Shown here piece by piece: positions 3,045-10,873 of a DNA stretch of 11,756 nt. The position numbers were made by a program, and so were the translations under genes. The DNA lies in contig JACAFS010000032.1 of NCBI GenBank assembly GCA_013378385.1, positions 1-11,756 of the forward strand. The letters run 5' to 3'. The notes below the pieces were generated by a model that made no database searches, was not told the origin of the DNA, and worked only from the letters and a program-made list of their open reading frames with translations. This DNA comes from Nitrososphaerota archaeon (GTDB lineage Archaea; Thermoproteota; Nitrososphaeria; Nitrososphaerales; UBA57). Positions within the stretch are counted from its first letter, which is position 1. Each line of letters opens with the position of its first letter.

Positions 3045-3133
3045 GGTGGGATGGCGGAGAAATACAATTCTGCAACGGTTTACGCGTGCGCCTGCAAAGC
3101 GTATATACATGGGTTCAAATCCCATTCCCACCT
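3045..3133 (+). tRNA. tRNA-Cys (anticodon GCA) with about 13-17 extra nt in the D-arm region (probable non-canonical intron)
   Basis: The acceptor stem is a perfect 7 bp, GGTGGGA/TCCCACC. The T arm is ATGGG-TTCAAAT-CCCAT. The anticodon arm is TGCGC-CTGCAAA-GCGTA, with GCA at 3094-3096, and there is a 5-nt variable loop. U8 and A14 are present, and the discriminator is U, as expected for tRNA-Cys. There are 35 nt between the acceptor and anticodon stems, against 18-22 canonically. TATA-like CTATATAG lies 27 nt upstream and a T6 run lies just downstream. Confidence 0.75.
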
Positions 3134-3185: not shown

Positions 3186-4025
3186 TTGACACATTTGACT
3201 AATGTCGTAATTGATCATGATGTAATTGGCTGGGCACATAGCAATATGCAAAAACTCAAAGATCGATATAATAATATCTACATAGTTGGAAAAGATAATT
3301 CTCCAGAAGAATTAATGAATAATAATATTAGTGATCTGAATATTGCTAAATATTGCCTTAATAATAATTGCGATCTCGTGACTGCAGATAAGAAATCATA
3401 TGTTGATTGGTTTAATTCATATAATGGAATAACTAAATTAGTCATTTCAAAATTTGATTATTGGAATGAAGGACATAGACCAATTTTACTTATTCAAATT
3501 GAAAATACTAATCATATTGAGAACATTACACCATATAATTTCAATCTCAAAATATCAAAGCCACTTGAAACAGCTCCATCTAGATTCAAGAATAAAATCA
3601 TAACAATGGTTAATGAATCATTACTTCACTTTCCAGAATTATCAGATGATAGAATTACTTTGGGAATAACACATGTCAATGATGGAAATGCATCATGGGA
3701 AGAGGGCTATAAGATTAGGCTGAATCCGAGAAGACTGACATATTTTACTATAGGACATGAACTCATGCATTTGTTACAGTTTAAGGGAGATTTGCCCATG
3801 ACTGAAAACTCCACAGATATCTTCACACTTGCAAGATCCATGTTATTTCTTGACGAACCTCCTTGTTATCTAAAAATACCCAGGAAATTACAGAATTATT
3901 GGGAAGAAAATGCCGAATCAATACACAGTATCTGTAAAGATGCAATTGAATACAGAAAAACACATAGAAATTATATAAAATGGACTGAAGACAAATTCGG
4001 TCAATTGACTATCAAAACGAGATAA
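3186..4025 (+). CDS. Two-domain protein: N-terminal PIN-like (DUF5615-like) domain fused to a C-terminal HExxH putative zinc metallopeptidase domain
   Basis: 279 aa with a TTG start. The N-terminus has VVIDHDV ... ISDLNIAKYCLNNNCDLVTADKKSY, which resembles the DUF5615/Mut7-C PIN-like signature (lDEN ... sDeeil.lA...g.ilvT.DkDF). The C-terminus has FTIGHELMHLLQ (HELMH encoded at 3756-3770), as in SprT/DUF45-type metallopeptidases. The domain calls are from memory of the motifs. Confidence 0.65.
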   Translation: MTHLTNVVIDHDVIGWAHSNMQKLKDRYNNIYIVGKDNSPEELMNNNISDLNIAKYCLNNNCDLVTADKKSYVDWFNSYNGITKLVISKFDYWNEGHRPILLIQIENTNHIENITPYNFNLKISKPLETAPSRFKNKIITMVNESLLHFPELSDDRITLGITHVNDGNASWEEGYKIRLNPRRLTYFTIGHELMHLLQFKGDLPMTENSTDIFTLARSMLFLDEPPCYLKIPRKLQNYWEENAESIHSICKDAIEYRKTHRNYIKWTEDKFGQLTIKTR

Positions 4026-5817: not shown

Positions 5818-6507
5818 TCAAATTAAATCTAACCAACGATTAAAGATTATTCTTCCATTAGAATTGACTTTCTCTACTTTTTCGTCTAGATTTGACAATA
5901 TATTGGATTTATCAATAGATTCAGATAAAAGATCAGATTCAAATTTAGCAGTTATATTTTGTACTATGTCTTTCGTAATTTCTAAATGAAACAATAATCC
6001 ATAACATGTCTTTCTATAAATAAATGCTTGAATGTCAGAGATTTTACTAGAAGCTAATTTAGTAGAGTTATCCGGTAATGAGAAGATATCCCCGTGCCAA
6101 TGGAATGCAAGAAATTCATTTTCAAGATTCTGAAAGATTGTGTCTTCTTTATTAAAAATTTTTACATTATGCCAGCCAAGTTCTTGTTGAGAATTTCTGT
6201 ATATTAAACTATTCAATGCACTTGCAATGATTTGACTTCCTAAACATATTCCAATTATGGGTCTTTTAAGTTCTAAATATTTTTTCACTAATTCAATTTC
6301 AGTCTCAATAAATGAATAACGTGATTTTTCATTGACGCTCATTGGACCGCCCATAATAATAAGAGCGTCATAATCTAGAAGATTTTCATAATCAGAAATG
6401 AGATTTTTACAATCAAAACCTATATTTCTTTTCGCCATTAAATCTGCAATGATTCCTGGAGTCTCAATATCAATATGTTGAACGACAAGGATATTTTTGG
6501 AATTCAC
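5818..6507 (-). CDS. Class I glutamine amidotransferase (GATase1, GuaA-N-like stand-alone)
   Basis: 229 aa with a GTG start. It has the nucleophile elbow IIGICLGSQIIA, an FHWHGD segment, and the His-Glu pair in LFHLE. Confidence 0.88.
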   Translation of the reverse strand: MNSKNILVVQHIDIETPGIIADLMAKRNIGFDCKNLISDYENLLDYDALIIMGGPMSVNEKSRYSFIETEIELVKKYLELKRPIIGICLGSQIIASALNSLIYRNSQQELGWHNVKIFNKEDTIFQNLENEFLAFHWHGDIFSLPDNSTKLASSKISDIQAFIYRKTCYGLLFHLEITKDIVQNITAKFESDLLSESIDKSNILSNLDEKVEKVNSNGRIIFNRWLDLI

Positions 6508-6553: not shown

Positions 6554-6766
6554 ATGTTAGAATGTAAAGATTGTAGGTTAGAGTTTACCGGAAAAGGCCC
6601 TAAATCAGATGTAATTTTCGAAGAATTCTGCCCCAAGTGTGGAAGTTATGAAATATTTGTCAAGAATAGTTCAAATCCAATTACTAAATCGATTATTGGC
6701 TGGACTGTCGTATTTCTGTTCATTAGTGCAGTACTTCTTCCATTGATTTGGTACATTCTTATATAG
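6554..6766 (+). CDS. Zinc-ribbon protein with a C-terminal TM anchor
   Basis: MLECKDCRLEF...FCPKCGSYEI (CxxC...CxxC) is followed by the hydrophobic IIGWTVVFLFISAVLLPLIWYILI. I prefer ATG 6554 to the track start 6497. The 6497 start overlaps the divergent GATase gene and lies upstream of the TATA box. Confidence 0.65.
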   Translation: MLECKDCRLEFTGKGPKSDVIFEEFCPKCGSYEIFVKNSSNPITKSIIGWTVVFLFISAVLLPLIWYILI

Positions 6767-6800
6767 AAATTATTACAGTTAATTTCAGGAGGATGTTTAA

Positions 6801-6848
6801 ATGGACGGTTGTAAATGTGGAAGTTCTTGTGATTGTGGCAGTAAATAG
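6801..6848 (+). CDS. 15-aa Cys-rich metallothionein-like micro-ORF (MDGCKCGSSCDCGSK)
   Basis: The ATG has AGGAGGA (6787-6793) 7 nt upstream. The peptide has a CxCxxxCxC pattern with Gly/Ser spacers and a CGSK terminus, like the fungal Cu-metallothionein of Neurospora (from memory ...SSCNCGS...CGSK). It is too short for the ORF track. Confidence 0.4.
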   Translation: MDGCKCGSSCDCGSK

Positions 6849-6990
6849 ATTAGTAATATTTTAGTGCGTGTTTCACGTTTAATTTTTATGAATAAATTTG
6901 AAACACTTCACACAATAATTGGTAAGATTATGATTTTATATTTAGCTATAGGCCTTATTATTGAGTTTTTTAGAGATTAAGTTGATTGAC

Positions 6991-7233
6991 ATGACAGATT
7001 TAGAACCAGATGAATTAGAGATACTTAACATGATAGAAATAGCAAAAAAATTAGGGGACGATAAATTAATCATAGCTCTATCGAAAGAGCTCGAGATAAT
7101 AAAAGAGAGAAATGAAGTTAGAAGAAATCCAAAGTCATTTATTGACGATCAGAAAGTTTTCTGCTACAACTGCAACACTAATGTAGAGAGTTCTCATAGA
7201 TTTTGTTTTCAATGCGGGGTGTTTCTTGATTAA
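6991..7233 (+). CDS. Small protein with a C-terminal zinc ribbon
   Basis: The N-terminal half is an acidic helix, followed by FCYNCNTNVESSHRFCFQCGVFL (CxxC-x10-CxxC). I prefer ATG 6991 to the track TTG at 6961. Confidence 0.6.
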   Translation: MTDLEPDELEILNMIEIAKKLGDDKLIIALSKELEIIKERNEVRRNPKSFIDDQKVFCYNCNTNVESSHRFCFQCGVFLD

Positions 7234-7452
7234 TTGAATAAATCAGACATATTGTTCGGGGGAATAATGGCATTTGCAATGTCTTTTCTCATGTCACTTG
7301 TAATGACGTATGTGTCGATTGGATTAGTGTCCGACTTTCTCATAATTTGGCTGAAATCATTTGTTATTGGGCTGATTGTCTCTTTTCCAATAGCGTTGTT
7401 TATAACGCCAATTGCAGCCAAAATAGTGAAAATGGTTGTAAAGACTGCGTAA
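7234..7452 (+). CDS. DUF2798-like small membrane protein
   Basis: 72 aa, starting at TTG immediately after the preceding stop (an alternative ATG gives MAFAMS...). FAMSFLMSLVMTYVSIGL...WLKSFVIGLIVSFPIALFITP resembles the DUF2798 pattern, from memory. Confidence 0.55.
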   Translation: MNKSDILFGGIMAFAMSFLMSLVMTYVSIGLVSDFLIIWLKSFVIGLIVSFPIALFITPIAAKIVKMVVKTA

Positions 7453-7575
7453 ATGCTCTCTGAGAAAGATATTGATCATGAACCTATCTAATCAAGTAAT
7501 CTACATCACAAAATTCTAATCGTGAATAAGTTTATTAGAGCGAGATAATTTAGAATTGATAGGAGTAATAATAAG

Positions 7576-7722
7576 ATGTCATTTAAAGACGAACGAGAAA
7601 TGCACAAAGCTACCTGCGCCGACTGTGGTAAAGAATGTGAAGTACCATTCAAACCAGACGAAGACAGACCAGTTTACTGCAAAGACTGTTTCCAAAAACA
7701 TAGAAAACCACGAAGTTTCTGA
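7576..7722 (+). CDS. CxxC-x17-CxxC zinc-ribbon protein (48 aa)
   Basis: The product is MSFKDEREMHKATCADCGKECEVPFKPDEDRPVYCKDCFQKHRKPRSF*. ATCADCGKECEVPFKP...RPVYC.DCF is the conserved CxxC-x17-CxxC domain signature. AGGAG (7561-7565) lies upstream and T5/T7 runs lie downstream. It is missed by the track, which lists an overlapping 63-aa ORF in another frame. Confidence 0.8.
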   Translation: MSFKDEREMHKATCADCGKECEVPFKPDEDRPVYCKDCFQKHRKPRSF

Positions 7723-10270: not shown

Positions 10271-10873
10271 ATGTCAAATTCTAATTCAAAGTATATAGCT
10301 ATAATACTAATTCCCATAATTCTAGTTTTAGGGTACTTTTTACTATTTTCCAATAATCAAAATGAAGGCATTGATTCTAAGTCTGCAATAATTGAAGAAG
10401 AAAATATAATTTCCGTCAAAAAAGATCCTGTTGTTGATGTTAATCGAGCTGAACCAGTTGTTGAGCCAGAAGTTATTGTTCCAGAACCTGTTGTAGAACC
10501 AGAGCCCGAACCTGTTGTTGAGCCGGTAGTAGAACCTGAACCAGAGCCCGAACCTGTTGTTGAACCAGAAGTTATTGAAATACAAATTTTAGAAGGAAAA
10601 GTAGAGATAATTATCGAGAATACAGAATTTATTCCTAATGAAATCATTATTCGTGTCGGTACGATAGTTACATGGATCAATAAAGACAACAGCGATCCAT
10701 TATATCCAGAACATACAGTTTCAATAGACATACTAGAAATAAACTCGCCAGAAATAATCTTCGGCGGAGGCTCAAATGAAGAATGGAGTCATACTTTTGT
10801 CGAGATAGGGGAATTCAGCTATCATTGCACCATACATCCTTGGATGACTGGCAAAGTCATTGTAGTAGATTGA
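10271..10873 (+). CDS. Membrane-anchored amicyanin/plastocyanin-like type-1 copper protein (cupredoxin) with a Pro/Glu/Val linker
   Basis: 200 aa. An N-terminal signal anchor (IAIILIPIILVLGYFLLF) is followed by an (EPVV/EPEP)n linker and a cupredoxin fold. The copper ligands are His (PEHTV) and C-x2-H-x2-M in YHCTIHPWMTGKVIVV. Compare amicyanin YHCTPHPFMRGKVVV, from memory. Confidence 0.88.
   Translation: MSNSNSKYIAIILIPIILVLGYFLLFSNNQNEGIDSKSAIIEEENIISVKKDPVVDVNRAEPVVEPEVIVPEPVVEPEPEPVVEPVVEPEPEPEPVVEPEVIEIQILEGKVEIIIENTEFIPNEIIIRVGTIVTWINKDNSDPLYPEHTVSIDILEINSPEIIFGGGSNEEWSHTFVEIGEFSYHCTIHPWMTGKVIVVD
10451..10575 (+). repeat. Low-complexity coding repeat (EPVVEPEP linker) including a perfect 26-bp direct repeat
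   Basis: GAACCAGAGCCCGAACCTGTTGTTGA occurs at 10496-10521 and again at 10538-10563, an offset of 42 nt or 14 codons. Confidence 0.85.

Follow-up and report, generated by a model that had tools for sequence, protein, structure and literature searches.

A probable lineage-restricted 15-codon cysteine-rich mini-gene in marine ammonia-oxidising archaea and its possible role as a metal-thiolate peptide

Introduction

Can a frame of 15 codons, four of them for cysteine, be a gene that selection maintains, and might its product handle metal? The question is raised by a locus in an archaeal window of 11,756 nucleotides (the whole stretch of DNA that we analysed), where an initial annotation pointed to a mini-ORF with an SD-like motif and proposed that it encodes a mini-metallothionein. 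The energy metabolism of marine ammonia oxidisers depends on copper enzymes, and the copper dependence and copper sensitivity of ammonia-oxidising archaea are well known. We found no paper on an archaeal metallothionein in the literature. Standard gene callers are blind to genes of 15 codons, and on about 40 related contigs no public call includes this one. If confirmed, it would indicate that selection can keep a four-cysteine peptide far below the known size of metallothioneins, and ammonia-oxidising archaea would have a first candidate for a buffer of metal in the cytosol.

Results and discussion

An exactly delimited frame

The elements at the site are the following.

6554 to 6766, plus strand: upstream cistron, which encodes a tail-anchored zinc-ribbon protein of 70 aa with CxxC...CxxC and then a C-terminal membrane helix (weak match to Pfam Zn_ribbon_8, E 0.0072)
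6755 to 6849, plus strand: lineage-specific segment, about 95 nt long (net +92 nt), which supplies the upstream gene with a new stop and contains a spacer, the SD and the mini-ORF
6767 to 6785, plus strand: variable spacer from the upstream stop codon to the SD region
6786 to 6800, plus strand: SD-like AGGAGGA (6787 to 6793) and spacer, the invariant CAGGAGGATGTTTAA, which ends in an in-frame TAA
6801 to 6848, plus strand: the 15-codon mini-ORF MDGCKCGSSCDCGSK, CxC-x3-CxC, with ATG at 6801-6803 and TAG at 6846-6848

The window here reads ...CAGGAGGATGTTTAA ATG GAC GGT TGT AAA TGT GGA AGT TCT TGT GAT TGT GGC AGT AAA TAG, which translates as MDGCKCGSSCDCGSK and agrees with the CxCxxxCxC peptide first described between these positions. 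Since an in-frame TAA (6798-6800) abuts the ATG, the frame is exactly delimited and no longer version is possible. Four of the 15 residues are Cys (27%) and form two CxC pairs with three residues between them; the background is Gly, Ser, Asp and Lys, with no aromatic, no His and no hydrophobic residue. The GC content of the window lies between about 0.27 and 0.46 per 500 nt, mostly around 0.30.

The mini-ORF was said to be unannotated, and in fact no related contig has a public gene call for it, bar one artefact. This is P0001 (contig L102, 170-349), a call of 59 aa that begins with the mini-ORF peptide. We looked at it as a possible stop loss and rejected a longer protein made by read-through: the DNA of L102 has the TAG, which the code used for the call reads as Q. 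P0001 thus stands in the protein collection as an artefact of gene calling under an alternative code. Downstream of the mini-ORF, a TAA closes the frame in most other haplotypes. A search of 5.8 billion predicted proteins with three alleles concatenated returned P0001 as its single candidate, and we discarded on this ground the idea that the peptide is a fragment or paralogue of a larger protein.

Presence in one clade and absence from its sister

We gathered relatives through anchors in the neighbouring genes, and not through the peptide, which avoids selecting for intact copies of the mini-ORF. They fall into two sister clades, with an identity of the zinc-ribbon protein of 79-99% within each and of 59-71% between them. 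The clade of the window, which is one of marine Nitrosopumilaceae-like archaea, has the SD and an intact mini-ORF in all 36 contigs that fully cover the site (window included), always linked to the zinc-ribbon gene and 34 nt behind its stop. Both elements are missing from the 13 readable contigs of the sister clade (13/13). Hence, the mini-ORF gene is restricted to one shallow clade of marine ammonia-oxidising archaea.

The difference between the clades has a simple structure. In the sister clade TGGTAC TTT runs straight into TTAGTAATATTTTAG (WYFLVIF*), and the zinc-ribbon gene ends in ...TGG TAC TTT TTA GTA ATA TTT TAG. In the window TTAGTAATATTTTAG stands at 6850-6864, immediately 3' of the mini-ORF, and the segment lies between TGGTAC and TTAGTAATATTTTAG. 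As the sister clade's TTAGTAATATTTTAG is what directly follows the mini-ORF in the window, the clades differ by one segment of about 95 nt. The families of the zinc-ribbon protein and of its 80-aa neighbour occur in these two clades only among the 5.8 billion proteins; there is no outgroup, and gain and loss of the segment cannot be polarised. A whole gene unit that one sister clade has and the other lacks, as a single segment of about 92 nt, is a natural experiment and a compact case in which to study the origin or loss of very small genes.

Two possible origins of the segment were considered and rejected. A copy from elsewhere in the window has no source, as 42 of 100 shuffles do as well as the best candidate. 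A duplication of the zinc-ribbon knuckle would leave a repeat such as AAGTGTGGAAGTT (6635) and AAATGTGGAAGTT (6813), which is not significant (equalled by 53 of 500 shuffles). Among 172 kb of related loci we found no other SD-led Cys-rich mini-ORF.

A probable SD-led second cistron

The genes around the mini-ORF are the following.

5818 to 6507, minus strand: class-I glutamine amidotransferase (GATase)
6991 to 7233: 80-aa zinc-ribbon gene (DZR, E 4.9e-5, below the Pfam cutoff)
7267 to 7452, plus strand: DUF2798 (Pfam, 2e-17), with third-position-biased variation
7576 to 7722: zf_Tbcl_2 protein (E 8e-22)

Together with the upstream cistron, the genes at 6991-7233 and 7576-7722 make up the run of Cys4 zinc-ribbon mini-genes in which the mini-ORF had been placed.

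AGGAGGA was located where it had been reported, with a gap of 7 nt to the ATG. The motif was also called rare. It is indeed uncommon, but not statistically exceptional: AGGAGG has five copies on the two strands of the window against 2.2 expected, and 16 of 200 shuffles reach five. The copy of the mini-ORF is the only one in the window that stands a few nt 5' of a start codon. Across the 36 contigs none of the 15 sites of CAGGAGGATGTTTAA varies (P about 0.013-0.035), while the rate of variable sites is 0.22-0.26 in intergenic stretches and other spacers, and 7 of the 19 sites in the spacer at 6767-6785 vary within the clade.

Most genes of the window look leaderless, with a TATA-like box some 25-30 nt 5' of the ATG and no SD. 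The zinc-ribbon gene at 6554-6766 is of this kind: it has the TATA-like TTTTATATAA at positions -30 to -21 relative to its ATG, an SD is absent, and the gene is probably translated from a leaderless mRNA. Conserved in both clades are GGAGG or AGGAG sites before two Pfam-supported neighbours, DUF2798 and zf_Tbcl_2, the former directly behind its preceding gene. Such a mix of SD-led and leaderless genes agrees with the description of archaeal initiation, in which both modes are used (PMC12993045). The mini-ORF starts 34 nt behind the zinc-ribbon stop and no oligo-T run of five or more interrupts the spacer at 6767-6785, for which reasons it reads as an SD-led second cistron. We infer that it is co-transcribed with the membrane zinc-ribbon gene and translated on its own account.

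Selection on the codons

Four peptide alleles were found.

MDGCNCGSSCDCGSK: 19 contigs
MDGCKCGSSCDCGSK: 14 contigs
MDDCKCGSSCDCGSK: 2 contigs
MDGCNCGSSCDCDSK: 2 contigs

They differ by three replacements (G3D, K5N and G13D), all conservative. The 36 contigs have no indel, premature stop, start loss or Cys change in the mini-ORF, and the TAG is constant. There are seven variable sites and nine codon variants, six synonymous and three nonsynonymous. The counts for the mini-ORF and for other frames and stretches of the same alignment are given below as synonymous to nonsynonymous variants, followed by variable sites at codon positions 1/2/3.

Mini-ORF, annotated frame: 6:3; 0/2/5
Mini-ORF, frame +1: 0:9; 2/5/0
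Mini-ORF, frame +2: 1:7; 5/0/2
ORF-like stretch 6888-6980: 6:22; 13/7/8
Zinc-ribbon gene 6554-6766: 24:19; 10/7/21
80-aa zinc-ribbon gene 6991-7233: 32:30; 19/10/30
DUF2798 7267-7452: 15:12; 7/5/15

A random point mutation in the mini-ORF would be synonymous in only 16-24% of cases, so that at least six synonymous variants among nine have a probability of 0.001-0.008, in a test that rests on nine variants from a shallow clade (86-99% identity in the neighbouring protein). The pattern is coding-like, with a third-position bias in the annotated frame only and an invariant SD with its spacer. A chance ORF had been allowed for; the frame kept intact throughout the clade, the 0/2/5 pattern and the invariant SD say that it is more than that. 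We regard the mini-ORF as probably a real small protein-coding gene.

If it is not, the segment may be a conserved non-coding RNA or DNA element, or the sequences may have diverged too little, and the codon pattern would be a coincidence. The few variants would allow this, as would their distribution: five of the six synonymous ones are bunched in the last four codons, and codons 1-11 have no synonymous change. The predicted fold, which pairs the SD with the interior of the ORF (z = -2.2), and the lineage-specific segment without homologues are further points in its favour. Yet the period of three is confined to the annotated frame and does not appear in the alternative frames or in the control stretch at 6888-6980. 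Codon positions 1 and 2 vary at a rate of 0.07, as real genes do, whereas spacers vary at 0.22-0.26. The mini-ORF also has a perfect SD at the right distance, and Rfam 15 gives no match near 6787-6906 at E values up to 1. We consider a non-coding element unlikely, at perhaps half the weight of the metal-thiolate reading discussed below. A search for tRNAs found none in the region of the mini-ORF.

Likeness to metallothioneins

At the level of sequence the peptide has the traits by which a metallothionein is operationally defined: it is small (15 residues, <10 kDa), Cys-rich and has CxC motifs, with no aromatic residue or His. By the same kind of evidence it belongs to no defined family of metallothioneins. 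The Pfam and PDB scans were made with the three alleles concatenated, and the E-values of this tripled query are only indicative. Metallothionein families 5 and 2 (Metallothio_5 and Metallothio_2) scored 12.4 and 12.9 bits with the concatenated query, against cutoffs of 25 and 23. The best Pfam E-values were 0.18-0.22, and the best PDB E-value 2.2, again with the tripled query. No family threshold was reached, and the peptide has four Cys against seven in the fungal family.

The likeness to the Neurospora copper metallothionein, which the initial annotation pointed out, is real. PDB 1t2y is GDCGCSGASSCNCGSGCSCSNCGSK, and BLASTP aligns it to the peptide with identities at 8 of 12 positions and an E-value of 0.001 that holds for this single pair only; a phmmer search of the PDB with the tripled query did not retrieve 1t2y. 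This protein of Neurospora crassa (fungal family 8, 25 aa) is likewise tiny, rich in Gly, Ser, Asp and Asn, free of aromatics and built on CxC pairs, and it binds 6 Cu(I). Both peptides have GC, SSC[DN]CGS and a C-terminal CGSK. Yet 1t2y has its seven Cys in the order CxC-x5-CxC-x3-CxC-x2-C, whereas the mini-ORF peptide has only CxC-x3-CxC. Convergence is likelier than homology, given an archaeon, a fungus and a low-complexity sequence.

The only match in the PDB was the snail Cd-metallothionein (6qk5/6qk6), which carries DGCKCG and also CKCGSSCSC, a near match to the CKCGSSCDC nonapeptide of the mini-ORF; but that protein has 67 aa in several domains, and the E-value of 2.2 from the tripled query is not significant. 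In yeast Mac1, Ace1 and Cup1 the motif CxC-x(3-4)-CxC is typical of polycopper-thiolate clusters. These proteins differ from the mini-ORF peptide in that the motifs lie inside larger proteins with additional Cys or His ligands. To our knowledge, four Cys is below any characterised metallothionein.

Among prokaryotes, SmtA/BmtA and MymT are the only bacterial metallothioneins whose biological function has been investigated (PMC7387436). They are small and Cys-rich like the product of the mini-ORF, and sequester metal, but they have about 53-56 aa, and SmtA has a zinc-finger-like fold, in which nine Cys and also His serve as ligands, and a divergently encoded SmtB repressor. The mini-ORF peptide has no Pfam match of the SmtA/BmtA kind and no ArsR/SmtB-type gene among its neighbours. 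Closer at hand are the archaeal CPxCG zinc-finger or zinc-ribbon micro-proteins, such as the neighbours at 6554-6766, 6991-7233 and 7576-7722, which are also very small, have four Cys and stand among similar genes. A beta-hairpin of about 10-20 residues stands between their two CxxC knuckles, and the mini-ORF peptide, with its CxC pairs three residues apart, is too short for a ribbon; the concatenated alleles had no zinc-ribbon match in Pfam.

A separate observation concerns viruses. On the minus strand of viral contig L101 (IMGVR_UViG_3300023180_002032, 3346-3411) an unannotated ORF of 21 aa, MKCNCEVCKCGSSCDCGCCDC, has nine Cys and shares the decapeptide CKCGSSCDCG with the mini-ORF, in another genome context and with other codons. 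It starts 2 nt after the preceding stop, and 11 nt separate its end from the gene that follows; 2OG-Fe(II) oxygenase-like and GroES-like genes are among its neighbours. It may be a phage-encoded metallothionein-like mini-gene. The pattern that found it required the peptide, with about 0.1 chance matches expected by our own estimate. Hence, it shows that such mini-ORFs exist and does not speak for kinship. Relaxed patterns gave seven matches in viral contigs, which we rejected as low-complexity or out-of-context frames, none of them thaumarchaeal.

A possible metal-thiolate peptide

What could such a peptide do? We favour a metal-thiolate peptide, plausibly a buffer or hand-over agent for Cu(I) or Zn(II), and give this reading a tentative probability of about 0.4. 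The mini-ORF would share a transcript, as its second cistron, with the leaderless zinc-ribbon gene at 6554-6766 and be translated from its own strong SD-like AGGAGG, 8 nt 5' of the ATG. The product would fold only around metal-thiolate bonds. With no hydrophobic or aromatic residue a hydrophobic core is impossible, which makes such bonds the likeliest route to a defined structure. One might think of a single tetrahedral M(II)Cys4 site, or else of a small polynuclear Cu(I)-thiolate cluster held by one or two peptides, as in the fungal Cu-metallothioneins. Its likeliest role would then be to buffer or hand over Cu(I) or Zn(II) in the cytosol, possibly together with the zinc-ribbon protein encoded upstream. 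A physiological role in copper handling is speculative. Among the neighbouring genes, Pfam identifies no copper or zinc transporter, chaperone or sensor and no metal-responsive regulator; a cupredoxin-like gene lies 3.4 kb from the mini-ORF.

If the peptide does bind metal, it would be the shortest of metallothionein type and the first from archaea. The fullest version of this idea is rather improbable: a Cys4 15-mer, smaller than any other natural molecule of metallothionein type, would build a Cu(I)- or Zn(II)-thiolate centre as a monomer or a dimer and buffer copper in a clade of marine ammonia oxidisers, and its whole gene would have come or gone as one segment of about 92 nt.

The same coding evidence would serve equally well a selected peptide that buffers no metal, e.g. 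a partner or regulator of the upstream membrane zinc-ribbon protein, or a thiol/disulfide redox peptide. The lack of metal-homeostasis genes nearby would fit such a peptide, and so would its constant place 34 nt behind the zinc-ribbon gene in all contigs. But a Cys4 peptide without hydrophobic residues offers little surface for contacts between proteins unless it is folded by metal, and the zinc-ribbon protein of the sister clade functions without the mini-ORF. This reading is one we rate no higher than a non-coding element.

Downstream elements and possible control by a leader

Three elements follow the mini-ORF.

6850 to 6877, plus strand: conserved 28-nt element TTAGTAATATTTTAGTGCGTGTTTCACG, nearly identical in both clades
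6868 to 6906, plus strand: inverted repeat or hairpin, with arms 6868-6881 and 6893-6906 of 14 nt, 86% complementary, and an 11-nt loop
6888 to 6980, plus strand: ORF-like stretch MNKFETLHTIIGKIMILYLAIGLIIEFFRD, our internal negative control

In the sister clade the zinc-ribbon gene ends with five codons that make up the first 15 nt of TTAGTAATATTTTAGTGCGTGTTTCACG, and even their synonymous sites do not vary. In contigs L093, L095 and L096 the ATG of the next gene lies about 25 nt 3' of the element. It is probably the TATA-type promoter of the next, leaderless transcript. The inverted repeat had been described with 8 bp; it exists and is longer, with arms of 14 nt. Over seven haplotypes 92% of its cells are paired, with one compensatory change (G-C to A-U) and one disrupting change. 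As 58 of 500 shuffles equal this covariation, the hairpin has no statistical support as a structure, and the sister clade retains its left arm only.

These elements bear on the possibility that the mini-ORF is a regulatory leader or uORF, in which translation of the Cys codons, or the arrival of the ribosome at the stop, controls termination or a downstream promoter or gene. It has four Cys codons in 15, and the repeat, with its compensatory stem change and a T5 run in the loop, begins 20 nt past the stop. But constraint extends to the residues other than Cys, where the only replacements are the three conservative ones, and we found no alternative-hairpin architecture or mutually exclusive pairing. 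The covariation falls short of significance. None of the genes downstream is related to Cys or sulfur, and they occur in the sister clade, which lacks the mini-ORF. Attenuation by leader peptides is, as far as we know, not established in archaea. Control by a leader is distinctly improbable. Less probable by far is a RiPP precursor, e.g. for a copper-chelating compound of the chalkophore kind, which a Cys-rich core and the copper dependence of the host lineage might suggest: 15 residues leave no space for a leader, and the neighbours (GATase, zinc-ribbon proteins, DUF2798 and zf_Tbcl_2) include no known maturase, as had been remarked before.

The stretch at 6888-6980 is probably a decaying small (membrane-protein) gene, or else non-coding. 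Its ATG is an ATA in the commonest haplotype of the window's clade. MNKFETLHTIIGKIMILYLAIGLIIEFFRD resembles a 35-aa ORF in two contigs of the sister clade (L089 and L090).

Further observations on the locus

Some observations on the surrounding genes are recorded here in their own right. A 12-nt tandem duplication, TTTGGTACATTC (aligned to window 6746-6757), is found in contigs L001, L082, L085 and L103-L112, and adds WYIL to the zinc-ribbon membrane protein of the commonest group of haplotypes. A tandem duplication of the zf_Tbcl_2 gene is present in L104, L107, L108, L111 and L117, while other contigs of the clade, the window among them, have a single copy. At 7230-7475 the public calls for related contigs have an ORF of 81 aa on the minus strand, opposite the DUF2798 ORF at 7267-7452; these calls are probably on the wrong strand. 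A tRNA-like Rfam match at 3072-3125 is weak (23.3 bits, E 0.41, where the gathering score is 29), has no ARAGORN support and is probably due to chance. Finally, the window encodes at 10271-10873 a protein of 200 aa with an N-terminal membrane helix, a long linker of Pro/Glu/Val repeats and a cupredoxin-like C-terminus (...HCTIHPWMTGKVIVVD), which ranges from 167 to 202 aa across the related contigs.
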